A DNA stretch of 64,000 nt from the IMG/VR virus record IMGVR_UViG_3300032038_000042; one strand, given 5' to 3'. Within the stretch, counting starts at the first letter, position 1. Every line of letters starts with the position of its first letter. Origin of the DNA: a virus. Lineage: Duplodnaviria > Heunggongvirae > Uroviricota > Caudoviricetes. The notes under the pieces were generated by a model. It did no database searches, was not told the origin of the DNA, and saw only the letters and a program-made list of their open reading frames with translations. Positions 20,965-47,595 of this stretch are shown in pieces. The translations under genes were made by a program, and so were the position numbers.

Positions 20965-21711
20965 TCACTCGTTATCGTTACCAGTTTCAAATGAACTGTC
21001 TCCGAAAATCCAATCAAGAGCATCTTCATAATCCTGGGAAGCCAAAGTTCTACAATCTGGATTTTCCCTTGGATCTGACTGATGATCGATGTAACCACCA
21101 AAATCAATCCAATTGGAAATATCTGGATGTGCTTTCCATTCATTCAATGGAGCTTCTTTCAAGTGCTCCAAAGATTTAATGAAGCAACTCTCTCCGTAGT
21201 CACCCTCTGTCTCCCAAAAGGTGTCTCGATCATCTCCAATGAATTTGTGTTCTTCGTTCATGTAGTGGAAGTAACTGAATTTGCAACCCTTTTCTTTAAG
21301 GAAATCAAAAAGACCTTTTACTTTATCGTAAGCAAGATTGCGGATGTAATTGACATTTTCTTCATCAATTTCCTTGTAGTGCTTAATCCAATATTCATCG
21401 TTCTTTTCTTTTGCTCTTGCAATGTCCGTTAGCGAGCCAAAACAAAATGAATACTCTCCCCAGGACTTTTCAAGGTTGTGACGTTCTCCATACTCATTTT
21501 TCTGCATAAGGGAAAGCCAATCGCATAAAGCAACCAGGTAGTAAGAAAACTTTGACTGTGAATCAGAGTAACTTTCGAACTCCCATCCGAACTCATCACC
21601 TTTCCAATTTAAAGTACCATTTTTACCTGCACCGCTTCCTTTTGAAGCGAATGTAAGTGAATGTGCTGAACTTGAATTTGTTTCAAACGTATTTATACGA
21701 ATCGATTTCAT
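20965..21711 (-). CDS. Member 1 of the MKSIR-xx-TFETNSSS-xHS N-terminal family (acidic, 248 aa)
   Basis: N-terminus MKSIRINTFETNSSSAHSLTF. It shares its first ~18 residues with the ORFs at 32513, 40449 and 46999, which otherwise have unrelated bodies. Confidence 0.55.
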   Translation of the reverse strand: MKSIRINTFETNSSSAHSLTFASKGSGAGKNGTLNWKGDEFGWEFESYSDSQSKFSYYLVALCDWLSLMQKNEYGERHNLEKSWGEYSFCFGSLTDIARAKEKNDEYWIKHYKEIDEENVNYIRNLAYDKVKGLFDFLKEKGCKFSYFHYMNEEHKFIGDDRDTFWETEGDYGESCFIKSLEHLKEAPLNEWKAHPDISNWIDFGGYIDHQSDPRENPDCRTLASQDYEDALDWIFGDSSFETGNDNE

Positions 21712-23429
21712 GCTTCCTCCAAAAACTGGCTAAATTGTTTAATCTGACTTGCTGTATAAACCTTTTCAATTGGCATATCAATCTTTCTACACCAGTCGGA
21801 AACGATTGAAGGATCGATATACGAATTTTTTGCTGTTCCTGACGTAAAATTCTGGTTACGTTCTTTTGACTCAAGGTTAAGCTCAGCTTGATCGATTTTA
21901 GCTTTTGATTTTTCAATCTGCTCTTTCAAAGCTTTAATCTTATCCTTGTAACCATCCTTTTTAGCAGCTTTCAAAGCCTTGATCTTTTCTTCACGCTTTT
22001 TATTCTGCTCTACAACTTTTGCTTTACGCTCGTCGAGTTTTTCTTCAGAAGCTTTGAAGCTTGCTTTACGCTTTTCTTCAGCAACCTTATTTACACCACG
22101 CTGATGATTCAAACGACGTGCAACCTGCATTGTAGCTTCATCAAATGCAATCTTTTTAAGTGCAATTGGCGAATCTTTTGTTACTTTGAACTTTGCAGTC
22201 ATCTCTTCAAGTGCTTTAGTAGCTGTATAAGCTGCAACTGCAGTACGTGCAAGTTTTGGAGTAAAGATTCCGTCAAGCTCTGGAACGACCTGAGAAATGT
22301 ATTGCTTAATCTGAAGCTTATCTGTCTTGAGCTTTTTGTCCTTTGCCCAAGTTTCTTCAATAACATCTGCATATTCAGTTTCAATTACGCTTGTATCTCT
22401 TACAGAATCTTTTCCGTAAAAGTCAAACTTAATTTTATTTCCTGAACGCTTAACTTCTTTTCCCCATTCAAGTGCAAGAAGCCCTTTTGTACCATTTATA
22501 GTTTCGCTTGCAGAACCAATTCGAATACCTTTTTCGAAAAGCATGAAAACTGCAACTGCTGTACTCAAGTCCTTTTTTGCTTTAAAATCGCTTGCTATTT
22601 TTGCAAGTACTTTTTCGTAAGATTTTCCAAGTGTTGCTCCTGCAGCGTACTTTTTTGTCTGGCCTTCCTTCTTTACGGAAGAAGCAGCAGCAAACTGAAT
22701 CATCTTGTATTTTGTTGACTTAAGTGTTTTGATAGAACCATCTGCATTTGGAATTCCAACATTAATGTTGTACTGAGCAGCAAAATGTGATTCTGGATTC
22801 CAATCAACGTTCCAAGCAAAACCACTTGTAATTAGCATTTCACCATCTTCGCCATAATAAAGCACTTCTGGAAGCTTTTTGCTGTTTGTGTTAAGTTTAA
22901 CATCTGCAGCTGTATTTTCGAATTTCCAATATCCGTTAAGGGGTGAATCTCCTCGTCCGAAGAAAATTCCTTCTGGTTCAATTGTCCAGCTTGCAAGCGG
23001 TTCGTCGTTACCGTTAATCTTTACAATACCGTATTTTGCTTTAAGTTCTTCATTCTGCTTTTTGATTTCGGCTGCATTAGCCTTTTTCCAAGCAGCTTTG
23101 CATTCTTTTGCTTCCGCGTACCATTTACGCCATTTTGCAATTTCTTTATCGTTTGCTACAAAATTAACCAAATCTGGATACTTTGTAAAGTCTTTTCCAC
23201 CTGCAGAAGCAATGCAGGTAAAAACACGCTTAATAAACTTTGTATCCTGCATGCAAGGAAGTTCCGGATTAATACGACAAAAAGCTCCAAAAATGCGGTC
23301 TGAAAGTTTATTTTTATCTGCAAAAGGGGGAACTGGGATTCTTGCTGGAATACCAATTCCTTTTATTTCTACTGATGTTAAATCCTGTAACTTCATTTCG
23401 TAACCTCGCCGTATAATATAGTGATACAC
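21708..23429 (-). CDS. Type IB DNA topoisomerase (573 aa) with an N-terminal extension and a coiled-coil linker between the catalytic His and Tyr
   Basis: ...FYGKDSVRD... (Arg), ...TPKLARTAVAAYTATK... (Arg), ...ARRLNHQRG... (His) and ...GTAKNSYIDPSIVSDWCRK... align with poxvirus/bacterial TopIB motifs (...GTSKLNYLDPRITVAWCKK...). About 95 residues of K/E-rich heptad sequence separate the His and Tyr. Confidence 0.7.
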   Translation of the reverse strand: MYHYIIRRGYEMKLQDLTSVEIKGIGIPARIPVPPFADKNKLSDRIFGAFCRINPELPCMQDTKFIKRVFTCIASAGGKDFTKYPDLVNFVANDKEIAKWRKWYAEAKECKAAWKKANAAEIKKQNEELKAKYGIVKINGNDEPLASWTIEPEGIFFGRGDSPLNGYWKFENTAADVKLNTNSKKLPEVLYYGEDGEMLITSGFAWNVDWNPESHFAAQYNINVGIPNADGSIKTLKSTKYKMIQFAAASSVKKEGQTKKYAAGATLGKSYEKVLAKIASDFKAKKDLSTAVAVFMLFEKGIRIGSASETINGTKGLLALEWGKEVKRSGNKIKFDFYGKDSVRDTSVIETEYADVIEETWAKDKKLKTDKLQIKQYISQVVPELDGIFTPKLARTAVAAYTATKALEEMTAKFKVTKDSPIALKKIAFDEATMQVARRLNHQRGVNKVAEEKRKASFKASEEKLDERKAKVVEQNKKREEKIKALKAAKKDGYKDKIKALKEQIEKSKAKIDQAELNLESKERNQNFTSGTAKNSYIDPSIVSDWCRKIDMPIEKVYTASQIKQFSQFLEEA

Positions 23430-23459
23430 CTTTAAGGATTTTCCGAAAATTTCACAGAA

Positions 23460-24110
23460 TTACCTTGGGTAAATGTCGCTTTCGTCGACGACATCTACAG
23501 AATCGTTGTAGTCCACATTTATAAAAGGTGCGCTTCGATGCAAATCTTCAGAATAAACTGCAATTTTTGCAGCTGCAGCTTCGTAGTCTGCATAAGCTTC
23601 AACTTCAAGTGAAAAGTTATAATCCTTTAACAAAGCTTTAAAATCTCTTAAAAACTTTTTAGCTTTTTCGCAAAATCTTTCATCATCGCGAACTTTCTGA
23701 AAGTGCTCCTTGATTGCATTTATATTGAAACTTTCTGCAGAGTAGCTATCAATACCTAAAATATTGTTAACCCAATCTGCAACCTCTTTAGCATCTGTAT
23801 GCTGGAAGTTTTTATTTCCAATTTTATCTACAACTTTGTAGCTCTTATAGATTTCTACAAACTCGTTTTCAATAAAGATAAACTGCACAAAGTACTCAAC
23901 ATCGAGGCGCTTACCATTACCTAGACAAGGTTGTACATAGCGATAATCTGTATCAAGATTTGATATGCAGAATTTGTTGTAATCGCTTTTATACTTTTCA
24001 ATAATCTCTTCTCTTGAGCAATTGTATATCCGGGTAGTACCTGGGTCTGTAACCTTTACTCTTTTATCAATTACAAGTATTTCCTGATTTTTCATTTCTT
24101 TGTACCTCAC
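23460..24110 (-). CDS. Hypothetical protein (216 aa)
   Basis: ORF at the head of the leftward topoisomerase operon. Confidence 0.45.
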   Translation of the reverse strand: MRYKEMKNQEILVIDKRVKVTDPGTTRIYNCSREEIIEKYKSDYNKFCISNLDTDYRYVQPCLGNGKRLDVEYFVQFIFIENEFVEIYKSYKVVDKIGNKNFQHTDAKEVADWVNNILGIDSYSAESFNINAIKEHFQKVRDDERFCEKAKKFLRDFKALLKDYNFSLEVEAYADYEAAAAKIAVYSEDLHRSAPFINVDYNDSVDVVDESDIYPR

Positions 24111-24235
24111 GCCATATAATATAGCAAGACATCTTTAAAAACTTTCTAAAAAAATTTTACTTTTTAGCCTATATTATGAATGCAGTTACAAACTTAAGTG
24201 TGTAATAATTTTTTTTAAACCAAGGAGTCAAAAGT

Positions 24236-24637
24236 ATGAGAGTTGAAGAAGCTTGCGGTTTCGGAATAGGTGCTAAACCTGAAATTGGAATGCCTTGTAC
24301 TTTACACATGTACAGCGATAGCCACGCATGTGAAGTTGTAAAGATTTCTAAAAGTGGTAAAACATGCTGGATTCGAAGAAATGTTGTAACTGTAGATCCT
24401 TCTTCGGAGGGTGGAATAGGACATCAGGATTGGGTAATTCATAAAGGTGAATTTGTAAAAATACACTCTAATCCAAAAACGTTTGAAGATTACCCAGAAC
24501 CTCGGCTTGCAGATGTTCCAGATTATTTTACTTACTATAAAGTAACTTTGAGAAAGAACGGAGCATGGAGAACTTCAAAGACAAACGAGTATGTTCAGCT
24601 TGGAGTTGCACACGAGTATTACGATTGGTCGTTTTGA
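24236..24637 (+). CDS. Hypothetical protein (133 aa)
   Basis: AAGGAG SD 7 nt upstream of the ATG. Confidence 0.5.
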   Translation: MRVEEACGFGIGAKPEIGMPCTLHMYSDSHACEVVKISKSGKTCWIRRNVVTVDPSSEGGIGHQDWVIHKGEFVKIHSNPKTFEDYPEPRLADVPDYFTYYKVTLRKNGAWRTSKTNEYVQLGVAHEYYDWSF

Positions 24638-24753
24638 AGAACTAAAATTCAACAGTCTATATTAATAACTAATTATCGTATCAAAAGGAGATTAAATGAG
24701 AGTAACAAAATATGCAGTCTTTTAAGTAAACTTATAATGCTTAGGAGACTTAA

Positions 24754-25791
24754 ATGAGTAGAAGTTACAGAAAAGGTTACTCAGGACACTGCTCCACTTA
24801 TGGAGATAAATGGTGTCGCTTTCAGTATCACAAAAGCTTAAGAGCAAAGGATCATCGTATCCTAAAAGAGTGTGAGCAATTTTACAGAGATTGCAAACTT
24901 TTTGAACCATATGAAGAATGCTGTGGTTTGAATGGTGAAGTTTGTGATGTAGATGTAGATTGGTATTATCTCGAATTGGATGATCCACACGATAAAGCAA
25001 TCTATGATAACAATCTTATCAACCCAGAAGAAATTCTTTGCAATGTTCATTCTAAAAGAATAAACAAATGCATAGGTTGCTACTATTCAGAAAATTGCTG
25101 GAAAGATGGAGAATTCTTCGATGCTTGGGAAGCAAGTCCAGATGAAAAATTCTGCAACAACAGAATCGATCATTCAATCAGATATTCTGATAAATGGAGT
25201 TGGGCATCAGATGGAGGTGTTTACTATCAAGAAAGTGTTGCTAGCTTAAGAATCGATTTCGACAAGGAGATGTTTGGAGAGGAAAATAATAGATACTCTC
25301 ATACAAATGCTTGGGATGATTATTGTAAATTCAAACAAGCAAAGTACAACACAACACCACGTAAATGGTACCTGGTATACGAAATTCCTACAAAAGAAAC
25401 AATTCGTATTAACTGGGTAAGTTATTATACACGAAATGCACTTCCAAAGTCAACAAAAAATGTTTGGTACAAAATAGAGTCTTTTTGGGGAGATGAAAAA
25501 CCATCTATTTACAAATATGAAAGGTGTTGGGAAACAGCAAAAGATAAAATACTTTTAGACCATAAACCTATGCTTTCAGATCTTCCAAAAAATGCTAAAT
25601 TTTTATACTCTTGCAAATCCCGCAAACATACTTATACTCAAGCAAAAAGTGACTGGGATCTAATGGAGTTTTTATTTTACAGAAACATTATACCGACTCA
25701 CTTTACTAGTAGAGAGGATTTAAATAAATGGCTTTATGCGAACGAAGAGAAGATAGTTCGCAAATGGTACAAAATTAAAAATCGAAAATAA
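24754..25791 (+). CDS. Cys/Trp/Tyr-rich hypothetical protein (345 aa)
   Basis: Many CxxC / CxC pairs (…CEQFYRDCKLFEPYEECCGLNGEVCDVD…CIGCYYSENC…). SD-like GGAGA upstream. Confidence 0.5.
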   Translation: MSRSYRKGYSGHCSTYGDKWCRFQYHKSLRAKDHRILKECEQFYRDCKLFEPYEECCGLNGEVCDVDVDWYYLELDDPHDKAIYDNNLINPEEILCNVHSKRINKCIGCYYSENCWKDGEFFDAWEASPDEKFCNNRIDHSIRYSDKWSWASDGGVYYQESVASLRIDFDKEMFGEENNRYSHTNAWDDYCKFKQAKYNTTPRKWYLVYEIPTKETIRINWVSYYTRNALPKSTKNVWYKIESFWGDEKPSIYKYERCWETAKDKILLDHKPMLSDLPKNAKFLYSCKSRKHTYTQAKSDWDLMEFLFYRNIIPTHFTSREDLNKWLYANEEKIVRKWYKIKNRK

Positions 25792-27260: not shown

Positions 27261-28550
27261 ATGTGGAAAATTCACGGAGAAATGGTCTCTAACGAAAGAG
27301 ACGTAATGGAACATTTTGGTCTAAAATACCCACCTATTGTAAAATCACTTTTGGATACCGACTTATATAAGTATAGCATGGGCCAAACGTATCATCATCA
27401 ATTTGGAAATCTAAAGACAACTTGGGATTTTAAAGCTCGCAATGTTGGCGAAAACACAACTCACACTTCTATCTATACAGAAGAGGACAAAAAAGAGATA
27501 AACAATCAGCTTTGCGCTTACGCAGCACTTCGTTTTGATGAAGATGAATTGCAATATCTCAATGCAAAATGTCCTTGGATTAAGCAAGATTACATCAACT
27601 TCTTGCGCTTTTGGCATCCACGCCTAGAAGACTTTCAATGCACAACTAACAACAAGTTCGGTAATGGAATTATGTTTTTTGGTGTTCAAGAGTATATTGA
27701 ATACTACGAGATTCCAGTCCTCGAAATTTTTGCCGAAGTCTATTACAGAAACCACTACAATTATGATGAGCTTCTTGCAGGTTTCAAAGAAAAGACTAAC
27801 GAAAAAATCGCTGAAATGAAGAGCAACAAAGACCTTCATTTTGGAACTTGGTCAGAGTTTGGAGCACGTCGTCGCCTTTCATTTGAAGCTCAAGACTGGT
27901 TGATTGGTCGTCTTACAGAAGAAAAGCTTCCAGGTTTTATTGGAACTTCAAACGTTCTTTTGGCAAAAAAGTATAAAGTCACACCTGTTGGAACTTGTGC
28001 TCATGAATTTATTGAATGCGTTGGCCAGGGAAATCCAATGTACAATCCAGCTTACAGCAATAAGATTGCAATGGAAGCTTGGATAAAAGAATATGGTGTT
28101 TGGAACGGAATTTGGTTGACTGACACTATTGGTGATGAACTTTGCCGTAGAGACATGCAAAAAACTTATGCAACACTTTTCAGTGGAGTTCGTAACGATT
28201 CCGGAGATCCATTTAAGTGGGCAGATGATTGGATAAATCATTATACCAATCTTGGAATTGATCCAAAAACCAAAACTTTGCTTTTCAGTAACAGTATAAA
28301 TTCTCTTGAGCTTTGGTCAAAGTTGTGCTTTTATGTCGAAGGTCGTGCTAAACCTGCTTTCGGAATTGGAACGTATTGGTCTGGCCCGCAAACTATTGAT
28401 CCTCTTAACATTGTTGCAAAAGTCGTTCTTGTAAATGGAAAAGATGTTGCAAAACTTTCTGATGATAGCGGAAAGACAATGAGTCGTAGTCAAGAGTATG
28501 TTGATTACCTTCGCAGAACTCTCGATTGGCGTTTAAAATCTGAGGAGTAA
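27261..28550 (+). CDS. pncB: Nicotinate phosphoribosyltransferase
   Basis: ...SLLDTDLYKYSMGQTYHHQFGN... matches the PncB N-terminal signature (E. coli ...[20 protein letters not shown]...). The 429-aa length is typical. Strong SD. Confidence 0.8.
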   Translation: MWKIHGEMVSNERDVMEHFGLKYPPIVKSLLDTDLYKYSMGQTYHHQFGNLKTTWDFKARNVGENTTHTSIYTEEDKKEINNQLCAYAALRFDEDELQYLNAKCPWIKQDYINFLRFWHPRLEDFQCTTNNKFGNGIMFFGVQEYIEYYEIPVLEIFAEVYYRNHYNYDELLAGFKEKTNEKIAEMKSNKDLHFGTWSEFGARRRLSFEAQDWLIGRLTEEKLPGFIGTSNVLLAKKYKVTPVGTCAHEFIECVGQGNPMYNPAYSNKIAMEAWIKEYGVWNGIWLTDTIGDELCRRDMQKTYATLFSGVRNDSGDPFKWADDWINHYTNLGIDPKTKTLLFSNSINSLELWSKLCFYVEGRAKPAFGIGTYWSGPQTIDPLNIVAKVVLVNGKDVAKLSDDSGKTMSRSQEYVDYLRRTLDWRLKSEE

Positions 28551-28553
28551 AAA

Positions 28554-29135
28554 ATGATTACACCAAAACTTTTGAATAAAACAAAAGAAGTAGACCTTAT
28601 CAAAACTCCAGTCTTTACTGTTGTTGAAAAAGAATACGAAAATCTGGAATTCAAACCAGTAGGATTGAATTGCAAAGATTGGGTAATGGTTATTGCTAAA
28701 GACTCAATTTCAGATCCAGTCTGTGTTTTTGTAAAGCAAACAAGATGGGGTTGTGAGCATTCCACAATTGAATTTCCTTGCGGTACAGTAGACTTAAATG
28801 AAAGTCCTGTAGAAGCTGCAGTAAGAGAATTTCGAGAAGAAACAGGTATTGAGGTTGCACAATCTTCGTTAAAAGAGATTGCAACATTCAATCCAAATCC
28901 AGCTTACTTTAACAATCTTATGCACATTTTTGAATTTGTAGACAGAGGTTTGTTGAGCAAGTTCTTAAATAAGAAAAAGCAAAAGCTGGATAAAAACGAG
29001 GATTGCGAAGTCTTTGTTGATAGACTTGAAAATCAAGCAACACTCTTAAAGAAAGGTGGAATGAGTTTAATTGGATATGTATATGCTTCAAAAGTAAATA
29101 CATCTGCAAAGTACGAATTGAAGGAGATTAAATAA
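28554..29135 (+). CDS. Nudix hydrolase
   Basis: Perfect Nudix box GTVDLNESPVEAAVREFREETGI (Gx5Ex7REUxEExGU). Confidence 0.75.
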   Translation: MITPKLLNKTKEVDLIKTPVFTVVEKEYENLEFKPVGLNCKDWVMVIAKDSISDPVCVFVKQTRWGCEHSTIEFPCGTVDLNESPVEAAVREFREETGIEVAQSSLKEIATFNPNPAYFNNLMHIFEFVDRGLLSKFLNKKKQKLDKNEDCEVFVDRLENQATLLKKGGMSLIGYVYASKVNTSAKYELKEIK

Positions 29136-29136
29136 C

Positions 29137-29712
29137 ATGAAAAATAAATTTTTAGTTGTAATTGATATGCAGAATGATTTCTGTACAGGTGCTTTGAAAA
29201 ACGATGATGCAGTAGCTGTAATTCCTTTTATTAAAAAGCAGATTGAGGAAGCTCGTAAGAATGGTACTCGAATTGTTTATACTCGCGATACTCACGGAAG
29301 CGATTATATGGAAACACTCGAAGGAAAGCATCTTCCATTTCCTCACTGCTTGAATGAATCCTTTGGTTGGGAAATCGTAGATGAACTTAAACCAGTTAAT
29401 CCGATAGTATTTGCTCCCTTTGGAGTTATTTGTAAGATGATTGAGAATGATCCAAAAGCCGATATTGTTGTAAACAAAAATCATTTCGGTTTTGATGGAT
29501 GGAAACATCTCATTCCAGAAGATTCAGAAGTAACAATGGTTGGAACTTGTACAGATATCTGCGTGGTTTCAAACGCATTAGCTATTAAGACTATTGAAGG
29601 TGTTGAAGTAACAATTCTTGCAAATGGTTGCGCTGGTTTGACAAAAGAAAAGCACGAACATGCTCTTGATGTAATGGAAAGTTGTCAGTGTAAAGTTGTT
29701 AGAGGAGAGTAA
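29137..29712 (+). CDS. pncA: Nicotinamidase (isochorismatase-family cysteine hydrolase)
   Basis: FLVVIDMQNDFCTGAL aligns with E. coli PncA LLLVDLQNDFCAGGAL. Catalytic Cys context ...VGTCTDICVVSNA. Confidence 0.75.
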   Translation: MKNKFLVVIDMQNDFCTGALKNDDAVAVIPFIKKQIEEARKNGTRIVYTRDTHGSDYMETLEGKHLPFPHCLNESFGWEIVDELKPVNPIVFAPFGVICKMIENDPKADIVVNKNHFGFDGWKHLIPEDSEVTMVGTCTDICVVSNALAIKTIEGVEVTILANGCAGLTKEKHEHALDVMESCQCKVVRGE

Positions 29713-29714
29713 AA

Positions 29715-30524
29715 ATGGGTCCAAAAAAGTTCGATGTAAAAGAAGTTCACGACGAGATTATTGAGTTTATTAAAGACTTCTTTAAGGATAAAAATGGTCC
29801 TGCTACATTAGGAATTTCCGGGGGAAAGGACAGTACCATTTGTGCAGCTTTGTTAGCAGAAGCTTTAGGTCCAAAAAGAGTTGTTGGCGTAATGATGCCA
29901 AACGGTGTCCAGATGGACCTTAACGACTCTGTCAAAGTTTGTGAACTTTTGGGAATTCAGGCAATGAAAGTAAACATTGGTCCAGTTTACGATGCTTTGA
30001 GAGATCAGATTGATACATCTGATATTAAAGAGTCTCCTGATCAGTGGACACCTCTTTTCACAACAAATACTCCTGCACGACTTCGAATGGTAACACTTTA
30101 CGGTATTGCTGCTCAACTTGGCGGCTTTGTTTGCAACACTTGCAACTATTCAGAAGACTTTGTCGGTTACTCTACAAAGTATGGAGATTGTTGCGGAGAC
30201 TTTTCTTTATTGAATCAGCTTACAAAAACTGAAGTTGTTGCTTTAGGTGACTATATGAAACTTCCAAAAGAGTTAGTTCATAAAACACCTTCGGATGGAA
30301 TGTGCGGAAAGAGTGATGAAGATAATATGGGCTTTACATATGACTCTTTGGATACTTTTATCAGAACTGGATTAGCTCCAAAATCATTTGAAGTTTATAA
30401 CAAAATCAAAAAGATGCATCTCAATCCAAATACAAAACTAAAGTTGCTGCCAATGTCTTATCCGGAATTGCATTTGGAAGAAAATTGGAAGTTTGAAGAC
30501 CCAATTGGAGAAGTTTTAGCTTAA
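29715..30524 (+). CDS. nadE: NH3-dependent NAD+ synthetase
   Basis: PP-loop GISGGKDSTICAALL (SGGxDS). The 269-aa length matches NadE. Confidence 0.75.
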   Translation: MGPKKFDVKEVHDEIIEFIKDFFKDKNGPATLGISGGKDSTICAALLAEALGPKRVVGVMMPNGVQMDLNDSVKVCELLGIQAMKVNIGPVYDALRDQIDTSDIKESPDQWTPLFTTNTPARLRMVTLYGIAAQLGGFVCNTCNYSEDFVGYSTKYGDCCGDFSLLNQLTKTEVVALGDYMKLPKELVHKTPSDGMCGKSDEDNMGFTYDSLDTFIRTGLAPKSFEVYNKIKKMHLNPNTKLKLLPMSYPELHLEENWKFEDPIGEVLA

Positions 30525-31776: not shown

Positions 31777-32427
31777 TCAGTAAAAGGTAAAAAACAAACC
31801 TGTTAACTTTTCTATTTCAGTAACAGTAGTTTCTCTGCATTCGTTTTCCTGAGTAAAAATAAAGCATTGAAGCACTTTATACTTTTTGTTATAAAAGATT
31901 TTAAAGAACATTTCAGGTACAACTATATAACCATTTTTGCTTGGAATCTTTTTAGTATTTTTACCAAAAATTGGTCCACAACAAACATCTATCCAACCTA
32001 AATCCTGGGCATAAGCGTGAGCAGCTTCCTCGTAATCTTTCCAAACTCCTGCGTTTAGTTTATGAGTTTGAGGACAGATATTACACATCCTAAAAGTATC
32101 CTTTGAATGTTCTAAATCCCAGTCTCTATCATTGCATGGACACATGTGACCCCTATCGTACTTTGTATTTGTATAAGAATTGTGCTTTTGAGTATTTTTA
32201 CATTCTACAAAATTACTTGGTCTTTTTATTTTCGAAGCTTCCGATGCTGCAGCTTCTTTGTCTGTAAGTCTCCAAATAACAAAATCGGGGTTTTGTTTTT
32301 GTACATTATAACTTACGATATATGTTTTATGCTCATGTACAGGGTATTTACCTTTTACAGAAATATCTTGAGCGTTTAAGTATAAAACTGAAAAAAGAAG
32401 AGTTGTAAATAAAATAAATCGTTTCAT
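31777..32427 (-). CDS. Secreted DNA/RNA non-specific endonuclease (Serratia NucA family)
   Basis: DRGHMCPCNDRD... (the DRGH active-site motif) and a classic signal peptide MKRFILFTTLLFSVLYLNAQ. Start trimmed to the internal ATG at 32427. The upstream part of the 286-aa ORF is unlikely to be coding. Confidence 0.65.
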   Translation of the reverse strand: MKRFILFTTLLFSVLYLNAQDISVKGKYPVHEHKTYIVSYNVQKQNPDFVIWRLTDKEAAASEASKIKRPSNFVECKNTQKHNSYTNTKYDRGHMCPCNDRDWDLEHSKDTFRMCNICPQTHKLNAGVWKDYEEAAHAYAQDLGWIDVCCGPIFGKNTKKIPSKNGYIVVPEMFFKIFYNKKYKVLQCFIFTQENECRETTVTEIEKLTGLFFTFY

Positions 32428-32512
32428 ATTTAAAATTAGTTTGAAAACTGCGTACCGGAAAAGCCTATATTGTATATGTATTGTATTTTTGGGAATCCAA
32501 AGGAGATAAAAA

Positions 32513-33169
32513 ATGAAAAGTATTAGACAAGGAACATTTGAAACAAACAGTTCAAGTGCACACTCAATGGTAGTACCAAATATTAAAAAAATTGAAATTG
32601 ATAATTTCAATGCAGGTAAAACTTGGTATTGCTGCATTGATCACAATCGTAATAAACCTTTCTGGACGACAGCTGAACTTGTAGAAGAGTTGAAAAAATC
32701 GACTAAAACAGAAGAATTCGAGCGTTTGTCTGTAGGTTATGTTGACTTGAAATTCTCTCCTGTATATAATCCTTTTGAAGGTATTTGGAATACTTGGAAC
32801 TTGACTAAAGATGAAGAGCAAAATGTAATTGAGGATTTTGAAAACTTCAAAAGTTATTTTGCAGAAAACATTTCAGAGGATATGTTTGAATGGGCATTCA
32901 GCGATTCAAAAGAGAAAAAGTATTTTTCAAAGTATTTGATTAGAGCTTTCATTAGATTTTGGATTGAGGAAGTTTGGTATTCTCCTTTGTTGAAGATTGA
33001 CGATTTAAGTAAAGAAAACTGGGGAAACGATATTTCAATTCAGTTAAACGGTGGAGATTACGATTACGATAGAGGAAGTTTCAAATTAAAAGATGGTAAA
33101 TTGGTTCCATTTAATGAGAAGTGGGAAGATGGTTGTGATTACGAGTTTGCAATTAATTTGAGGAATTAA
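32513..33169 (+). CDS. Member 2 of the MKSIR-xx-TFETNSSS-xHS family (218 aa)
   Basis: N-terminus MKSIRQGTFETNSSSAHSMVV. GGAG SD upstream. Confidence 0.55.
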   Translation: MKSIRQGTFETNSSSAHSMVVPNIKKIEIDNFNAGKTWYCCIDHNRNKPFWTTAELVEELKKSTKTEEFERLSVGYVDLKFSPVYNPFEGIWNTWNLTKDEEQNVIEDFENFKSYFAENISEDMFEWAFSDSKEKKYFSKYLIRAFIRFWIEEVWYSPLLKIDDLSKENWGNDISIQLNGGDYDYDRGSFKLKDGKLVPFNEKWEDGCDYEFAINLRN

Positions 33170-38968: not shown

Positions 38969-40177
38969 TTAAATTTTAATTTTTGTATTTAATTCTGGAA
39001 TTGATAAGTATGCTCCATCCCTTTCCCCGAAAGTAAATTGAATTTGATAATCTAGAATTAATTTTCTAACAACCTGTAAAGCTCCTAAAGCATCTTTAAC
39101 TTCAATAGTTGTTTTATATGGATTTGGAATTGGTTCTCCCAAAACTTCGTTTACAAATCTTTTTGGATCCTCGAGGGCTAAAGTAAGCAAATCATTCTCT
39201 GTTACAAAAGCTTTTTTAGCATTTGTAGTAAAAGTTTGCTGCACACTAGCAGGAAATTCCCGAATGTCGCTATTTGGATGTTTTTCTATGTAGGCTTTTA
39301 CATTTTCTATATCACCTACCGCTCCATTTGATACATCTATAAAATGTGTATTCCTTGGAAGTTGAGCGACATCTTTGCAACTCTTTACATGACTTAAATA
39401 AATTGGAACAAAATGCTCTACCAGGTAATCGCAATTCTTTTCAATTTCATTAATGTGTTGATCTAACAAATCGTTATAAAGGTTGTTTGGGGACTTTTCT
39501 ACTAAAAAGCAAGAAAATAAAGCTTTTGAAGAGCTAAATCTCGCTGCTATTCTGTATTTAAGGTTTTCATAAAATCTCATAGCTGTCGCAGTTTCATAAC
39601 CATCTGCATCATAATCAACTATAAGCGGATTTGTACCAAGTACTTCTGCATTGCTTTTTATAGCTCGAAACGCAATTTTGTTACCTTTATAGTAAGCAAA
39701 ATATCTTTTATCTTCATCTTTGTAAATAATGATTTGATCATCCGAAACGTTAAAGTTTTCTGCATCTTCTAAAAATACAAAAAGTGGATTTTCTTTATCT
39801 TGAATACCTCGTAAAAAACCAACAAAGCGTGCTAACTTCTCATCGCAACGCATTCCTGCAAAAACGCAAGAAAGATCTGCTGTAGGAGCAAACTTAAAAA
39901 TTTCTTCTTTTGGATTTTTAAGTAACATTCCTAAGTACAATCTGTATGCAACAATTAAAGATGCATAAACTCCTTTACCTATTCCGATTGCTCCGGATGC
40001 GTAAACTTCAGATGTTTTTGTTAGATTTTTATCGAACTCTTTATCGTATGTTTTTAGAGCAAGTTCGATACAACCGAAGAGTTGTTTAAGATTAGTTTGC
40101 TTTTCAACAAACTCCCAAAATGTGAGAGGTTTTTTAACGTAATAAGACTCCCACAAAACCTTAATTTGGTTTTGCAT
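38969..40177 (-). CDS. Hypothetical protein (about 402 aa) with a P-loop-like GIGKG and acidic clusters
   Basis: Trimmed to the ATG (MQNQIKV) preceded by AAGGAGAAAAAT. Contains ...ASGAIGIGKGVYAS... and ...FVFLEDAE...IVDYDADGYE... Function not assignable. Confidence 0.45.
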   Translation of the reverse strand: MQNQIKVLWESYYVKKPLTFWEFVEKQTNLKQLFGCIELALKTYDKEFDKNLTKTSEVYASGAIGIGKGVYASLIVAYRLYLGMLLKNPKEEIFKFAPTADLSCVFAGMRCDEKLARFVGFLRGIQDKENPLFVFLEDAENFNVSDDQIIIYKDEDKRYFAYYKGNKIAFRAIKSNAEVLGTNPLIVDYDADGYETATAMRFYENLKYRIAARFSSSKALFSCFLVEKSPNNLYNDLLDQHINEIEKNCDYLVEHFVPIYLSHVKSCKDVAQLPRNTHFIDVSNGAVGDIENVKAYIEKHPNSDIREFPASVQQTFTTNAKKAFVTENDLLTLALEDPKRFVNEVLGEPIPNPYKTTIEVKDALGALQVVRKLILDYQIQFTFGERDGAYLSIPELNTKIKI

Positions 40178-40448
40178 ATTTTTCTCCTTATCAAAAAGAA
40201 AACAAATCAATCGCAGCAATATCGGATTGACGGGTTTTTAAATGATACTTTAGTTAGTCGTTTGCCTATATTTTTATATATGAAGTGTGAAGTTATATCT
40301 TCGGAAGAAGATAAACGGAAAAAGATTTTTAGAATTCAAGTCACTCCGGAAAATTGGGAAGAGAACGAACAAATAGCAAAAGCTATGGGAGTTAAGTTGC
40401 TCGCGGAGCACGTTGAATTGAATTTTGAGTTGAAAAGGAGAATAAATA

Positions 40449-40943
40449 ATGAAGAGTATTAGACAGTCAACTTTTGAAACAAATTCGAGCTCTGCTCACT
40501 CGCTCACTTTAGTTATGAAATCTCTTAGGGAAAAGTTACAGAATAGAGATTTGTTTTATGTAGGTCCTTTTGAAAAGGATTCCGATTCTGATGAAACTTC
40601 AGTAAACAAAATCGAAGAAAAAAATTGTATTACTGTTGAAGAAGCAATTAAAAGAGTAAAGGATTATCTTACCGCAAATCCAGATTTTGGTCTTCCGGAT
40701 AATTTTAATTTGGATATGCTTACTCCAGAATTTGTAAAAGAGAATTATTGGAATAATGATTACGATCTTTATAATATGTTTTACGATATTTTGGATCCTT
40801 GCGAAAGAGGTGAGCATTACATTCCTGCTGAAGACCTTTTTGCATCCGAAGAATCAGATTCCTGTTTAATCGGAGATGTGCTAACTTACGACTTAAAAGA
40901 TGGAGACAGTCTTGAAATTTACAACGTAAGCATAGCTTGTTAG
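40449..40943 (+). CDS. Member 3 of the MKSIR-xx-TFETNSSS-xHS family (164 aa, acidic)
   Basis: N-terminus MKSIRQSTFETNSSSAHSLTL. AAAAGGAG SD. Confidence 0.55.
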   Translation: MKSIRQSTFETNSSSAHSLTLVMKSLREKLQNRDLFYVGPFEKDSDSDETSVNKIEEKNCITVEEAIKRVKDYLTANPDFGLPDNFNLDMLTPEFVKENYWNNDYDLYNMFYDILDPCERGEHYIPAEDLFASEESDSCLIGDVLTYDLKDGDSLEIYNVSIAC

Positions 40944-43230: not shown

Positions 43231-43665
43231 ATGAAGAAGAAAGTATACCTAAGTGGTCCTATAACTGCTGATAAAGAGCATTATAAGGAGCATTTCGCAA
43301 AAATCGAAGAGTATCTCACAAACTTGGGATTTGATGTAACAAATCCATCTAAAGATGAGTACGATGATGAAATCGCAAAAGATCACGAAGATAAGTGGAC
43401 AAAAGAAGCTTGGCTCGATTACATAAAAAGAGATATTGAGCTTGTTTCTAAACACGACATTGTTTGTGTTTTAAAAGGTTGGCAGAAGAGTTTAGGTGCT
43501 CTTATGGAGCTTGCTGTAGCAAAGCGTTACGGAATACCAATCATGATTGAAGGTGAAAATAAGATTTACACAAAATGGGATTTTCAGTTCTGCGGTTTGG
43601 GAGTAGACCCTCTCGAAGGATATTCAATTCAAAAGGAGATAGATGATGCTAAATCAGGAAGTTGA
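43231..43665 (+). CDS. DUF4406 / nucleoside 2-deoxyribosyltransferase-like protein
   Basis: MKKKVYLSGPITAD... Second copy of the fold seen at 30589. Confidence 0.45.
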   Translation: MKKKVYLSGPITADKEHYKEHFAKIEEYLTNLGFDVTNPSKDEYDDEIAKDHEDKWTKEAWLDYIKRDIELVSKHDIVCVLKGWQKSLGALMELAVAKRYGIPIMIEGENKIYTKWDFQFCGLGVDPLEGYSIQKEIDDAKSGS

Positions 43666-43963
43666 TGATACAAAAGAACCAAAAGTTTTCAGAAAAAAGC
43701 CAGTTGAAATCTGTGCTATGAAATGGACTGGAAAGAACATAAAAGAGATCGAAGCTTTTTCAAAAGGTAATGCTTTTGTGGAAGATGACGAATTGGTTAT
43801 CAAAACATTGGAAGATGGTAAAACAGGAAAAGCAAAGCACGTAGCTTCTATAGGAGATTATATCATAGAAGGAGTGCAGGGAGAATTTTACTTCTGTAAA
43901 CCTGATATTTTCGACCAAACGTATGAAGTTGTTGTAGAGAAGAGAAATGAGAGAAAGATTTAA
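43643..43963 (+). CDS. Hypothetical protein (106 aa)
   Basis: AAAGGAGATAG ATG. Confidence 0.4.
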   Translation: MMLNQEVDDTKEPKVFRKKPVEICAMKWTGKNIKEIEAFSKGNAFVEDDELVIKTLEDGKTGKAKHVASIGDYIIEGVQGEFYFCKPDIFDQTYEVVVEKRNERKI

Positions 43964-44660
43964 ACAACTTTTTATGAGTAAAGAGCAGATTATATATTTA
44001 CTCTTTTTGTTTTTTAATTGCGTAGTATGCGGAATGTTTACCGCAACTTTTACGTACTATCAAATTGGACTTGGTACAAGATTTTATTCTTTAATTATTT
44101 GTACCGGTTGCATTGTTGGAGTAATACACGCTTTTGTTTCAGCGGATGTAAAAAAGAAAAGATGGGTTTTTTGTCACTACAAAGCAATTGATTTAGGTGA
44201 AAGTATTTTTTATACTTGCACTGAATTAAGTTTTGCAATTTATTACTTTGCAAATAATCTAAATCCCTTGTCAGATGAAGCACCTGTACTAAACTTATTT
44301 TTCTTTTGGTCAATCTTTTACAGAATTGTAAACGGAATTGTTTCGATTGTAATACCTTCGATTGGAGATGTATTTGAGCAAAGTCTTTACAAAAATCAAA
44401 TTGATTATCAAAATCACTCTAATGCAGAAAATCTGATGTGTTGTTTTGGTGCGGCTTTGGGAGCAGGCGCTTGCTTCCTTGTAGGAGACTTCTTTAAAAA
44501 TCGTCCGTACTTCATTTTCTTTTTGGTTATTTTTGACTGGATTGGATTGTGGAGTAGGTGGCAATTTTATTTTAAACCTTCAAACTATTCAATAATAAAA
44601 AGAAATTTTGCAAAAGATAGTGGAGAAAAATTAAGAAAACTTCGTAGAGGAGAATTGTAA
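43947..44660 (+). CDS. Multi-pass membrane protein (237 aa)
   Basis: At least 5 hydrophobic segments. Confidence 0.45.
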   Translation: MRERFKQLFMSKEQIIYLLFLFFNCVVCGMFTATFTYYQIGLGTRFYSLIICTGCIVGVIHAFVSADVKKKRWVFCHYKAIDLGESIFYTCTELSFAIYYFANNLNPLSDEAPVLNLFFFWSIFYRIVNGIVSIVIPSIGDVFEQSLYKNQIDYQNHSNAENLMCCFGAALGAGACFLVGDFFKNRPYFIFFLVIFDWIGLWSRWQFYFKPSNYSIIKRNFAKDSGEKLRKLRRGEL

Positions 44661-45353
44661 ATGGATGTAAAAGAGAATTGTGATGATACTTTACCTACTG
44701 AATTGTGTGGAATAAAATTTCAAAGAGGTTGGTATTACCTTGTTGACAAAAAGGTATTGGAACCCTACATTCTTGAAGATGAAAAAGACACAGATTACAA
44801 GTCAATTGTAATTTATTTGGACTGCGAAGAGTATCCTCATATAGGTGATGTAGTTTATGAAGCTATCTTTTTTACAGATATTAAGCATGTTGGAATTTCC
44901 GGTCGCATTTGTACAGTAAGGAAGGATTTAAAGGACAAGGCAGCCGCGAGAGAAGAATTTTTGAAAAAGCTCCAGGAAACTCTTCCGAAGTTGAATTTAA
45001 AAGTTGATACAGATATGTTAATCAAACAGCGAGATGCACTTTTGAACGCAATTAAAGACATTTCGATTGAGTTGGATGAAATTAACTCTGAACTTAAAAA
45101 GGAACAAAAAATGAAAAGATTTGTACTTGTTTATTACGATGTTACATACCGTTTTAGAGGTTGCGCTGTAAAAGATCTCTTCAAGCTTTCAAGAAGAGAA
45201 GTAAAAGAAATTCCAGAGTCCTTTGAAAGCGAAAATGAAGTAAAAGAGTGGCTTGATGAATTGGAAATTGAATTAGCAAAAGAATTTATCGAAAAAGATA
45301 TTGATTTTTACAACGACGTCAACGCTTATATCACAAACATTGTGAGGTTGTAA
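44661..45353 (+). CDS. Hypothetical protein (230 aa)
   Basis: AGAGGAGAA SD. Confidence 0.45.
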   Translation: MDVKENCDDTLPTELCGIKFQRGWYYLVDKKVLEPYILEDEKDTDYKSIVIYLDCEEYPHIGDVVYEAIFFTDIKHVGISGRICTVRKDLKDKAAAREEFLKKLQETLPKLNLKVDTDMLIKQRDALLNAIKDISIELDEINSELKKEQKMKRFVLVYYDVTYRFRGCAVKDLFKLSRREVKEIPESFESENEVKEWLDELEIELAKEFIEKDIDFYNDVNAYITNIVRL

Positions 45354-45355
45354 AA

Positions 45356-45889
45356 ATGGAAAAAGAAGAAATGAAAAAGCTTCTCGAGAAGTATCCATTT
45401 CTCATTCATAAGAATATTTTCTCTCAGGAAGTTTGTTGTCAAACAGAAGAAGAGAATTTAGAATACAATTGGTATACTGAGTGGGACGGATACGGTTGGG
45501 AAAAGATTTGGAAGCAATTTATGCAAGAACTCTTTAAAGAGTACGATAAACTTCCTGACGAAGCAAAAGAAAAGTTTGCTATTTACGATACAAAAGATAA
45601 GTACGGTACACTAAGAGTTTCTCTTTCTGGTTATACAGATGGTATGAGAAAAGCAGAATCTACATTACGCTTCCTTTCTTCTGTAACGTGTCAATATTGT
45701 GGAAAGCAACCCCGGGATTCAAAAGGTAATCATATCATTTGGACAACAGAGGGTTGGATTACCAATCTTTGTAAAGATTGCTTTAAGAAAGAAGTGTTAA
45801 AGAATAAATCCATTAAACAGCTTTCTAAAGGAGAGTTTAAAGAGTACGTAATAATGTGCAGACAAAAAAAATCCCAAAAGTTTGTTTGA
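45356..45889 (+). CDS. Zinc-ribbon-containing hypothetical protein
   Basis: C-terminal CQYCGK...(24 aa)...CKDC. Confidence 0.45.
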   Translation: MEKEEMKKLLEKYPFLIHKNIFSQEVCCQTEEENLEYNWYTEWDGYGWEKIWKQFMQELFKEYDKLPDEAKEKFAIYDTKDKYGTLRVSLSGYTDGMRKAESTLRFLSSVTCQYCGKQPRDSKGNHIIWTTEGWITNLCKDCFKKEVLKNKSIKQLSKGEFKEYVIMCRQKKSQKFV

Positions 45890-45952
45890 CTGAAACTCTT
45901 GAAAATTCCAAGAGGTAAACTCCTATATTTGTTATTAAAGAGGTATAAAAGA

Positions 45953-46537
45953 GTGGCATATTTTTACAAAAGAGACATTCTGATAACAAACTATTTCATT
46001 ACAAAGGAAAACGCAGAACTCGAATTTATTAAATTAACGCATGATGGAGATTATTTTCTTACCCATCAAAAGAAGCAATCCGAAGGTAAAACTTTTATTT
46101 GGAAAGGTGAACTTTCCGAAGAAACTAGAATAAAGCTTGTTGACAACCTTACCAGAACCGTTGTTAACATTCCTTTATCCGATGAGTCTGCAAAACGCAT
46201 TTACAGAGTTAGTATTGAAGGTTATCAGCTAGAGGATATTGCTACTCCAGATGCTCAAAACCCTAATCAGTTTAATGTCGATCCTGCGAAAATTAATTTC
46301 GAAGACTTTGAAATACCTTTTAAAGTTTGTAAGCATTGTGGTAACATTTATCTGCCAGATTACGACTTCATTGAAGATGAAGTTATGTGCGAGCATTTGA
46401 ATAGTATGTTTGGAGGTACTTACGAGTATCCTGCAGACTGGCCTGATTACTGTGCAAAGTGCTTAGAAGAGCTTTATGAATTGGATACAGCAAGAAGTGT
46501 TTATAAATGCTTTAAAGAAAGGGACATCATAAAATGA
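45953..46537 (+). CDS. Zinc-ribbon-containing hypothetical protein
   Basis: A GTG start with AAAGAGG upstream is preferred over the upstream TTG. Contains CKHCGN...CEHL...CAKC. Confidence 0.4.
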   Translation: MAYFYKRDILITNYFITKENAELEFIKLTHDGDYFLTHQKKQSEGKTFIWKGELSEETRIKLVDNLTRTVVNIPLSDESAKRIYRVSIEGYQLEDIATPDAQNPNQFNVDPAKINFEDFEIPFKVCKHCGNIYLPDYDFIEDEVMCEHLNSMFGGTYEYPADWPDYCAKCLEELYELDTARSVYKCFKERDIIK

Positions 46538-46809
46538 GAGATACCGGAGAAGCAACAGCTGATTATATTTTAAGAAAAACATTTTTTGAAAGTTATCAAA
46601 AACAGAATATAGCGAATGTAGCTTTTGATACAGATACAGAAAAGCACGAGTTGACCGTTTACATAAAACTTTACAATTACACGGATTCAATTCCTTTAAA
46701 AATTGATTTGAAACCTTTTGCATCGAAGTCAGAAAAAGAAGATTGTAAAAGTTTTTATAGAGACGATTCAAATAAAGGAATGAGTTGGTTTGAAGGAATA
46801 CCGCAATGA
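46534..46809 (+). CDS. Hypothetical protein (91 aa)
   Basis: ATGA overlap. Confidence 0.4.
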   Translation: MRDTGEATADYILRKTFFESYQKQNIANVAFDTDTEKHELTVYIKLYNYTDSIPLKIDLKPFASKSEKEDCKSFYRDDSNKGMSWFEGIPQ

Positions 46810-47012
46810 AACATATTCAGTTTAGAAATACAAGACTTTGTGTAGTATGCATGCCGACGTACACCTCTTTTACAGGAGTAAGAATTTCAAAAGAGGAGTA
46901 TGAATGTATTGAAAGCCAGAGTTGTAACTGCGAAGTTTGCAGTATTATAAAAGATAAACTAAACGATTATTTTTTGGAATTAAAAGAAGGAGGAAATAAT
47001 GAAGAGTATTAG
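46806..47012 (+). CDS. Cys-rich small protein (68 aa)
   Basis: CVVCMP...CNCEVC. Confidence 0.4.
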   Translation: MKHIQFRNTRLCVVCMPTYTSFTGVRISKEEYECIESQSCNCEVCSIIKDKLNDYFLELKEGGNNEEY

Positions 47013-47595
47013 GTCAAATACTTTTGAGACAAATTCGAGTTCTGTGCATTCACTCACTTTGACTTCAGCCTCAAACTACAAAGCGTGGGAAGATGGTGAA
47101 GCAATCTTAGTTGGAGAAGGAAATATTGTTCCTTTTACAGATCTGTATAGCACTATCGAAAAGTATACAAAAGATCGTATAGCAAGATATGAAAAAGAGA
47201 TTGCTGAAGAAAAGGATGAAAAGTCGAAAGAGTATAAAAAGAAATGGCTTGAAGAGGAAAGAGAAACACTTGCTAAGATCGAATCGATTGAGAAGGATCA
47301 GTTCTTGGCTCTTTCAAAAGAAATTATCGTCAAGGATGCAGAAGGTAGATTTGACGAGACTTATTACGATGATTATTACTACTTAGATGATGATGGTAAA
47401 GTACCGGAACTTTCAGAAGAAATTACAGATTGGGGAATCAAAAAGAAAGTTGCAGACATTTTGATCGACTATTGCGAGGAAGGTTATTTCACGGAAGATA
47501 GGTACTACGATAACGACTACTACGAAACATTCCAGCATGAACAAACTATCGACGGTGTTAAAGTTGTAGCTTTTGGTTATTACGGACACGACTGA
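46999..47595 (+). CDS. Member 4 of the MKSIR-xx-TFETNSSS-xHS family (198 aa, very acidic with a Tyr/Asp-rich tail)
   Basis: N-terminus MKSIRSNTFETNSSSVHSLTL. GGAGGAAATAATG. Confidence 0.55.
   Translation: MKSIRSNTFETNSSSVHSLTLTSASNYKAWEDGEAILVGEGNIVPFTDLYSTIEKYTKDRIARYEKEIAEEKDEKSKEYKKKWLEEERETLAKIESIEKDQFLALSKEIIVKDAEGRFDETYYDDYYYLDDDGKVPELSEEITDWGIKKKVADILIDYCEEGYFTEDRYYDNDYYETFQHEQTIDGVKVVAFGYYGHD

Follow-up and report, generated by a model that had tools for sequence, protein, structure and literature searches.

Four dispersed genes in a 64,000-nucleotide stretch of DNA from a virus of the class Caudoviricetes (IMG/VR record IMGVR_UViG_3300032038_000042; this whole stretch is called the window below) encode proteins, here designated p1 to p4, that begin with a common 18-residue sequence, MKSIRxxTFETNSSSxHS, and continue in different, acidic bodies. 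Elsewhere, genes with this N-terminal module almost always adjoin one gene for a radical S-adenosylmethionine (radical-SAM) enzyme. Thus, of the explanations weighed here, the module is most likely a handle for that enzyme and not a capsid-packaging signal. The explanation we favour, with somewhat less than even confidence, is that the module is a common handle for recognition, and probably modification, by one radical-SAM enzyme, and that the genes in the window are dispersed copies that would be served in trans.

The N-terminal module and the proteins that carry it

The coordinates and sequences of the four open reading frames (ORFs), which an earlier note on the window had reported together with their shared start, were confirmed (Table 1). 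The genes lie at approximately 21, 32, 40, and 47 kb of the window, and their products all match the pattern R-x4-F-E-T-N-S-S-S-x-H, with a prefix of eight residues from the start methionine to the phenylalanine. When all six frames of the window were scanned for FETNSSSxHS with up to three substitutions, exactly four sites were found, every one of them at an ORF start. Each start is preceded, at a distance of 4–8 nt, by a ribosome-binding site of the GGAGG or AAGGAG type. Within the first 18 codons, DNA identity among pairs of the paralogues is only 59–76%, with 5–10 synonymous vs. 1–3 non-synonymous codon differences, and serine codons of the TCN and AGY families are interchanged. Since the differences are mostly synonymous and the DNA identity is this low, the module is conserved at the protein level, as the earlier note had argued, and selection, not a recent duplication, gene conversion, or other recent homogenization of the DNA, keeps the four copies alike.

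Beyond approximately residue 22, BLAST revealed no significant pairwise similarity between the bodies of p1 to p4. The earlier description of unrelated bodies in acidic proteins (isoelectric point [pI] 4.2–4.8) thus holds, yet each body belongs to a conserved family. After trimming of the module, 651 unique bodies fell into 48 BLAST components, and p1 to p4 are found in four different ones. Likewise, when the p4 family was aligned to the p1 family with hhalign, only the first 28 columns could be aligned (97.6% probability). A BLAST link between p1-type and p4-type bodies turned out to be an artefact of two proteins, P0133, with a second, internal module, and P0274, with an untrimmed N-terminal extension, and a homology between FGGYIDHQS in p1 and AFGYYGHD in p4 was not supported by hhalign.

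A profile of the module, made from the first 40 residues of p1 to p4, was searched against 1.84 billion representative proteins and matched 3,208 clusters (E ≤ 1e-3). Of the 150 matches listed, nearly all begin at residue 1–11; a few longer proteins carry the module internally. The matching proteins are mostly 90–200 residues long. Among 367 unique module proteins from the fetched loci, six residues, i.e., R(-4), E(+1), N(+3), S(+4), S(+5), and H(+8), counted from the phenylalanine, are 100% conserved, whilst F(0), T(+2), and S(+6) are conserved in at least 98%, and the start methionine is located 8 or 9 residues before the phenylalanine in 98%. The invariance of R(-4) is independent of the search, as this position was absent from the search pattern. 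The consensus of the family reads M-x(2-3)-[IV]-R-x-x-[VT]-F-E-T-N-S-S-S-x-H-S. With a p4-type seed, only 32 loci were found in 185,579 species genomes, mostly on contigs of gut metagenome-assembled genomes, and the family is thus essentially phage-borne; P0246, a compact p4-type member, had no match in plasmids. Two proteins, P0034 (288 residues) and P0133 (395 residues), contain two copies of the module, at residue 1 and at approximately residue 168 or 250. As the second copy has its own methionine, these proteins probably result from read-through of adjacent genes, e.g., in recoded phages, with a real fusion as the alternative.

Rather than arbitrary cargo, the bodies represent separate conserved families, each of which has a conserved C-terminus of its own. 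The p4 type forms the largest subfamily, in which the module is followed by K/S-x-x-Y-x-K-W-x-x-G-E, a variable acidic middle part, and the C-terminal motif Y-E-x-F...G-E-x-V-V-A-F-G-Y-Y-G-H-D. W31, E100, and AFGxYG are invariant in the alignment of this type, and 379 homologues of p4 were found, including compact members of 117–125 residues. The p1 type is characterized by the motifs GxEFGWE, K..Y, GYIDHQS, and ETGNDN; full-length homologues of p1 range from 96% down to 27% identity (best E = 1e-163) and have the invariant motifs in common. In the p3-type alignment, the last residue is an invariant cysteine. The p2 type is rare; relatives are P0031, P0055, and the product of a gene located directly 3' of the radical-SAM gene in a 386-kb IMG/VR contig (L093). 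The ratio of non-synonymous to synonymous substitution rates (dN/dS) is 0.10 for p1 relative to a 58%-identical orthologue (L088) and 0.07 for p3 relative to an 88%-identical orthologue (L092), next to which the neighbouring genes are conserved as well. Hence, p1 and p3 orthologues are under purifying selection.

In at least nine related contigs, an orthologue of p2 (80% identical) is split into ORFs of 57 and 108 residues (in L001–L003; L001 coordinates 5435–5931), of which the former keeps the module and the latter is in another frame. A further variant of p2, P0028, has a stop at residue 50. The split genes are either decaying or give rise to an N-terminal peptide made on its own, and they suggest that individual copies are dispensable.

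No family match for p1 to p4 or their relatives was found in Pfam, NCBIfam, or PADLOC, nor did sequence profiles of the PDB match the p1 family. No paper printing the module motif was found in the searchable full-text literature, where a recent description may have escaped notice. The closest entry is phrog_28997, the function of which is unannotated. It matches the p1-type relatives P0021 and P0023 over their full length (E about 1e-11), whereas its matches with p1 to p4 are weak and restricted to the N-terminus (E = 0.003–0.25; 0.14 for p1 itself). Via a common alignment, p1 is tied to the full-length members P0021–P0025 of phrog_28997, with which it has the invariant motifs in common, and 33 of 74 p4-type members match this PHROG as well. 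However, phrog_28997 covers the p1-type core only, without the other body types or the linkage to a radical-SAM gene, and no structural annotation was found among the PHROG matches of module proteins. Thus, as suspected in the earlier note, the module family has no description in Pfam, NCBIfam, PADLOC, PDB sequences, or the searchable literature, and no well-known enzyme domain continues from the module through the four proteins.

Linkage to a radical-SAM gene and expression in a cultured phage

The gene linked to the module genes encodes a protein of approximately 295–298 residues with a CxxxCxxC motif followed by H/Y-E. The protein matches the Pfam family Radical_SAM at 5e-8; its best match in NCBIfam, to NrdG2, is weak and far below the cut-off (E = 4.5e-6), and no sequence relative was found in the PDB. 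In four differently seeded scans, the gene was present within the fetched stretch at 216 of 238 loci in total, a number that overstates the independent observations because the scans overlap and contain related phages. Seeding with a p4-type alignment gave 79 of 80 loci in IMG/VR, with the radical-SAM gene directly 3' of the p4-type gene, and 31 of 32 loci in the species genomes. With an alignment of p4 orthologues, the gene was found at 73 of 78 IMG/VR loci, at a median gap of 32 nt to the nearest module gene, and with a p3-type alignment, at 33 of 48 IMG/VR loci, which are more diverse. Conversely, all 80 loci retrieved with the radical-SAM protein as seed carry at least one module gene, these loci being close relatives of each other. 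Altogether, 135 distinct radical-SAM sequences were found in 188 loci. No consistent linkage of module genes to head, portal, protease, or secretion genes was detected in the sampled loci; the radical-SAM enzyme is the sole consistent neighbour.

The linked genes are organized in arrays of 2–10 module genes with different bodies, the largest comprising 7–10 (L093, L102). At the p4-seeded IMG/VR loci, one or two p1-type module genes lie immediately 5' of the p4-type gene in 76 of 80 cases. In the Lak megaphage Lak-A1, the radical-SAM gene is followed by five module genes, encoding p1-like, p4-like, and C-terminal-Cys bodies. Thus, the p1 and p4 types of the window also occur within radical-SAM arrays of other phages; the p2 type is present in such an array in L093, and C-terminal-Cys bodies resembling p3 are found in those of L093, L109, and Lak-A1. 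Two IMG/VR megaphage contigs, of 419,423 and 422,150 bp, each contain one radical-SAM array with 3–4 module genes and, more than 200 kb away from it, a solitary module gene without a radical-SAM gene within 10 kb. Hence, there is a precedent for dispersed solitary module genes. Both contigs have NAPRTase, NAD synthase, and RtcB in common with the window, at 40–50% identity.

Among 80 of the loci (L008–L087), a PurA-like homologue of adenylosuccinate synthetase (GGSFGDEGKG) is encoded approximately 3 kb 3' of the radical-SAM gene in about 25, and a second, unrelated radical-SAM-like gene (FGCDCHCKYC) is found nearby in about 18. These neighbours hint that, in these phages of 100–200 kb, the module genes lie among genes for nucleotide or DNA modification. 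A radical-SAM-like gene of 454 residues near the p1 orthologue in L088 proved unrelated to the linked family and has no counterpart in the window.

A cultured example is found in the Microcystis cyanophage Ma-LMM01 (L332; NC_008562.1 126542-136607). Its gp130 is a p1-type module protein (MLSIQVRQGVFETNSSSTHS...GYMDH...TGNDND), and its gp128, annotated as "Fe-S oxidoreductase," is a homologue of the linked radical-SAM protein, 52% identical to an IMG/VR member. The gene in between, gp129, encodes a protein of 112 residues without the module, and gp130 is the only module gene of this phage. In an infection transcriptome, gp130, gp129, and gp128 were all assigned to the middle subclass B5, and among these three, a middle promoter was predicted only before gp130; the three genes were silent at the two earliest time points and highly expressed at the two latest (PMC5780444 Table S3). 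The early genes of Ma-LMM01 are gp054–gp063, and the late genes include those for the head proteins gp086 and gp087 (PMC5780444). Thus, the module gene and its radical-SAM neighbour are co-transcribed in the middle phase, together with replication genes and not with head genes. The genes are adjoined by gp131, encoding 266 residues and annotated as "histidyl tRNA synthetase"; this protein or gp129 may contribute to the system in Ma-LMM01 as a further component. Searches of the literature for phrases on phage radical-SAM proteins, and for Ma-LMM01 in combination with Fe-S oxidoreductase or radical SAM, retrieved nothing relevant from what is searchable.

Possible roles of the module

Two features of the N-terminus bear on its role, i.e., its predicted structure and its coherence within genomes. 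AlphaFold2 models were built of p1 without Met1 (19-sequence alignment; mean predicted local distance difference test score [pLDDT] 88, predicted template modelling score [pTM] 0.86) and of P0246 (74-sequence alignment; mean pLDDT 86, pTM 0.75). In the p1 model, residues 4–11 have a pLDDT below 50. In the P0246 model, residues 1–20 average 59–64, with the E-T-N segment below 50, vs. 84–96 per block of ten for residues 21–120. According to these models, the module has no confident intramolecular packing in either body, and the most conserved part of the proteins is predicted with the least confidence.

As to coherence, the length of the prefix before the phenylalanine is identical in 95% of the pairs of paralogues within a locus vs. 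50% of random pairs, and paralogue pairs with different bodies show excess identity only at positions -8 to -6 and none after the motif. On a neighbour-joining tree of the radical-SAM proteins, the states with 8- and 9-residue prefixes form large blocks with few switches, and where the state switches, all paralogues of an array change together. The p1, p4, and C-terminal-Cys (p3) body types are found in both prefix states and clades. This pattern fits a co-adaptation of all N-termini in a genome to one partner.

Under the favoured explanation, one radical-SAM enzyme would mature a set of differently bodied small acidic proteins via the module, which would serve as its recognition site and probably also as its modification site. 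The proteins p1 to p4 would then be served in trans by a radical-SAM gene located elsewhere in the genome, and the bodies would carry the actual functions, which might, as a guess, lie in host takeover or nucleic-acid metabolism in the replication phase. The system is best regarded as a radical-SAM enzyme with a dedicated family of protein partners, and its chemistry and biology may well be new. More tentatively, it can be proposed that it constitutes a previously unrecognized class of radical-SAM-matured phage proteins, in which a universal tag of about 20 residues would guide one small single-cluster enzyme to polymorphic small acidic effectors, encoded beside the enzyme or scattered over megaphage genomes, for a modification placed probably on the cluster of Ser, Thr, Asn, and His residues. 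Such a class would be a protein-scale analogue of leader-guided peptide maturation that operates in the replication phase of infection.

If the explanation is right, a phage system that is widespread, in thousands of clusters from gut Lak megaphages to a cultured Microcystis phage, would employ new radical-SAM chemistry on proteins. It would account for a set of "hypothetical" genes that recurs as a block in large phages and provide a testable function for the "Fe-S oxidoreductase" of Ma-LMM01, and the module would be a compact and portable recognition tag of possible use in enzyme-directed protein modification. Whatever the mechanism, an 18-residue motif with six 100%-invariant residues that is tied to one enzyme family is a well-defined target.

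Several observations weigh against this explanation. A homologue of the radical-SAM enzyme was found by tblastn neither in the 64-kb window nor in the 8.8 kb beyond its left end, and the small contig that carries RtcB and the right end of the window has none either. The linked enzyme lacks cysteines for auxiliary clusters, and no peptide-recognition domain was detected in it, by which it differs from most known protein- or peptide-modifying maturases; moreover, Gly and Cys, on which such enzymes usually act, are both missing from the module. The recurrence of p1-type and p4-type genes together in many arrays would also be compatible with proteins that are constant subunits of a complex and not substrates that can replace one another. 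The low AlphaFold confidence of the module would equally follow if it needed a metal, a ligand, or an oligomeric partner. The prefix coherence is confounded and inflated by common ancestry, and the tree shows no more than a handful of switches between the two states. Finally, the sampling of loci was biased by the seeds used and by abundant related gut phages.

In leader-guided maturation, one of the closest known systems, one promiscuous enzyme acts on many precursors, as ProcM does on the prochlorosins (ProcA) and radical-SAM maturases do on precursors with NHLP or Nif11 leaders. The module system is similar in its conserved N-terminal segment, its variable C-terminal parts, and its paralogues that are located partly beside a single enzyme gene and partly dispersed. 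This architecture, resembling that of ribosomally synthesized and post-translationally modified peptides, together with the linkage to a maturase gene, is present in the loci of relatives and not in the window. However, the conserved segment comprises only about 20 residues, and the "cores" are folded proteins of 100–250 residues in conserved families. Furthermore, the linked enzyme has a single cluster motif, with no detected SPASM/twitch or peptide-recognition domain and no further conserved cysteines, and no leader peptidase or exporter recurs near the module genes. Because its products are folded and its enzyme lacks auxiliary clusters and a recognition domain, the system falls outside this class as defined.

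In glycyl-radical systems (PFL/PFL-AE, NrdD/NrdG, GrcA), a small radical-SAM enzyme, with CxxxCxxC and then His, acts on a protein substrate, as the linked enzyme would do, and NrdG2 was the weak match mentioned above. In contrast to glycyl-radical enzymes, however, the module has no glycine and is located at the N-terminus instead of near the C-terminus, and their RVxG[FWY] motif is absent from the module and from p1 to p3. The A-F-G-Y-Y-G sequence of p4 lacks the Arg, and the G-Y of p4-type proteins is not common to the other body types. A glycyl-radical reading of the p4-type C-terminus was, therefore, rejected as a general explanation. Anaerobic sulfatase-maturating enzymes offer another parallel, since these radical-SAM enzymes, which act on Ser or Cys of the sulfatase motif, oxidize a serine within a short conserved stretch close to the N-terminal end of a folded protein, and the module contains three invariant serines. 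However, their (C/S)-x-(P/A)-x-R motif is absent from the module and its vicinity, there is no sequence relationship, and they have two auxiliary clusters, whereas the linked enzyme has no extra conserved cysteines.

The main rival to recognition by a radical-SAM enzyme, which we consider unlikely, is that the module has a catalytic role or binds a ligand such as a metal or nucleotide. The proteins would then be small enzymes or subunits acting jointly with the radical-SAM enzyme in a small-molecule, nucleotide, or DNA-modification pathway, and their bodies would descend, with strong divergence, from a single ancient fold. The appeal of this rival lies in the chemistry of the invariant residues (Arg, Glu, Thr, Asn, three Ser, and His), to which the p1 type adds invariant polar motifs typical of active sites (W, K..Y, IDHQS, T.NDN), and in the conserved extreme C-termini of the body types with His/Asp or Cys, which could meet the N-terminus. 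The location of the arrays among replication and nucleotide-metabolism genes with middle-class transcripts would suit such a pathway, as would the joint recurrence of p1-type and p4-type genes. However, AlphaFold leaves the module unpacked against both modelled bodies, neither fold nor sequence comparisons revealed an enzyme match, and the many BLAST components with profiles that align only in the module argue against a single fold. Also the near-constant N-terminal position in the matches listed is unusual for an active-site motif, and arrays of up to 10 paralogues with a variable make-up resemble diversification more than a fixed pathway. Rather improbable is a second possibility, i.e., that the N-terminal strands of the paralogues zip together into a hetero-oligomeric machine, possibly around the radical-SAM enzyme. 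Low confidence in a monomer model is expected for an interface, several paralogues with different bodies occur in almost every genome, their extreme N-termini are coherent within a genome, and P0034 and P0133 have two copies of the module per chain. Nevertheless, Ma-LMM01 has to do with a single module gene, interface peptides are rarely 100% invariant in polar residues over thousands of clusters, and the two-copy proteins may be read-through artefacts, given the methionine of the second copy.

The earlier note had recognized a short, selected N-terminal module on different acidic bodies, which stands, and had compared it with capsid-targeting leaders and with secretion or trafficking domains, mechanisms for which little now speaks. 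The capsid-targeting peptide of phage T4 consists of 10 residues, starts with MK, and ends in Glu, and the first ten residues of the module, MKSIRxxTFE, resemble it in length and in both ends. As in the internal proteins of T4, a short N-terminal peptide is present on several otherwise unrelated small proteins, here acidic ones, in one phage genome. We nevertheless regard it as very improbable that the module is a packaging leader, cut by a prohead protease, on cargo that is carried in the virion and ejected. The strongest invariance (T-N-S-S-S-x-H) is located after the Glu at which cleavage would occur and extends across unrelated, distant phages, which is unlike capsid-targeting sequences, and the capsid-targeting idea is, therefore, not supported. 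Moreover, the genes are linked to a radical-SAM gene and not to head genes, the homologue in the cultured phage is transcribed in the middle class whilst its head genes are late, and the PHROG matches gave no structural annotation. Least credible of all is that the module mediates the secretion or trafficking of a family of polymorphic toxins or effectors, which would be delivered outside the infected cell. A conserved N-terminus, variable C-terminal bodies, and several copies per genome are formally similar to such families, but the N-terminus is polar without a hydrophobic signal segment, no match to known trafficking or toxin domains was found in Pfam or NCBIfam, and the recurring neighbour is the radical-SAM enzyme rather than any secretion-system or immunity gene. 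In addition, the family is almost confined to phage contigs, as the 32 loci in the species genomes indicate.

Genomic surroundings in the window

The window has a G+C content of 33%. The p4 gene is present verbatim on a metagenome contig of 394,539 bp in ENA (ERZ27256903, k141_2087336), and the genome is, therefore, of megaphage size (~395 kb). The window maps to two contigs of one ENA assembly, i.e., this contig, which extends to around window position 58,200, and a contig of 3,791 bp that carries RtcB; hence, the window represents a different or a scaffolded assembly of the same phage. The window segments that were tried had no DNA or protein match among the INPHARED phages, and close orthologues of p4 were not found in IMG/VR. 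Proteins encoded in the window include a eukaryote-type topoisomerase IB, NAPRTase, RtcB, a helicase, an AstE/AspA-like protein, dCMP deaminase, thymidine kinase, an SPFH protein, and a GGDEF protein, and there is one tRNA gene. The coordinates of the features discussed here are listed in Table 1.

Table 1. Positions in the window of the four module genes, their modules and ribosome-binding sites, and other features mentioned in the text
Feature	Position	Strand	Description
p1	20965..21711	-	248 residues, pI 4.7; p1-type body with C-terminal GDEFGWE, GGYIDHQS, ETGNDNE
p1 N-terminal module	21658..21711	-	MKSIRINTFETNSSSAHS
p1 ribosome-binding site	21716-21720	-	GGAGG
p2	32513..33169	+	218 residues, pI 4.8; p2-type body
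p2 N-terminal module	32513..32566	+	MKSIRQGTFETNSSSAHS
p2 ribosome-binding site	32500-32505	+	AAGGAG
p3	40449..40943	+	164 residues, pI 4.2; p3-type body with KSLxEKLxN, DGD, invariant last-residue Cys
p3 N-terminal module	40449..40502	+	MKSIRQSTFETNSSSAHS
p3 ribosome-binding site	40435-40440	+	AAGGAG
p4	46999..47595	+	198 residues, pI 4.5; p4-type body with C-terminal VVAFGYYGHD
p4 N-terminal module	46999..47052	+	MKSIRSNTFETNSSSVHS
p4 ribosome-binding site	46987-46993	+	AAGGAGG
GGDEF protein gene	63-1127	-	354 residues; N-terminal hydrophobic region and GGDEF diguanylate-cyclase domain
Topoisomerase IB gene	21708-23429	-	eukaryote-type, three Pfam domains; stop overlaps p1 start by 4 nt
NAD+ salvage/synthesis block	27261-30524	+	contiguous; NAPRTase-family protein, NUDIX hydrolase, isochorismatase-type (nicotinamidase-like) protein, NAD synthase
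ORF overlapping p2	31777-32637	-	286 residues; over-extended reading
Endonuclease gene	~31777-32430	-	secreted DNA/RNA non-specific endonuclease; N-terminal signal-like segment MKRFILFTTLLFSVLYLNAQ
Gene upstream of p3	38969-40219	-	416 residues; no Pfam match; divergent from p3
Three genes of similar size	51237-53726	-	
Tandem paralogues	54399-54917 and 54935-55483	-	both start with MQKLLKLF; 37% identical over full length
tRNA-Arg(TCT)	62697-62771	+	rest of 62300-64000 without convincing ORFs

Three of the module genes have neighbours that deserve mention. The overlap of the topoisomerase IB gene with p1 makes it probable that both genes are co-transcribed. The minus-strand ORF that runs into p2 is an over-extended reading of the endonuclease gene, and since that gene ends near position 32430, there is no conflict with p2. 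The divergent gene upstream of p3 is kept together with p3 in L092, where its product is 66% identical. Between p1 and p2, the NAD+ block shows synteny with related contigs (L001), and part of it is found in the 419-kb IMG/VR megaphage (L105); it may be an NAD-replenishing counter-defence module.

The tandem pair at 54399-55483 is an ordinary duplication, with likeness over the full length of the proteins, and by contrast makes the likeness of p1 to p4 at the N-terminus only unusual. The three genes of similar size located before this pair may form another set of paralogues.

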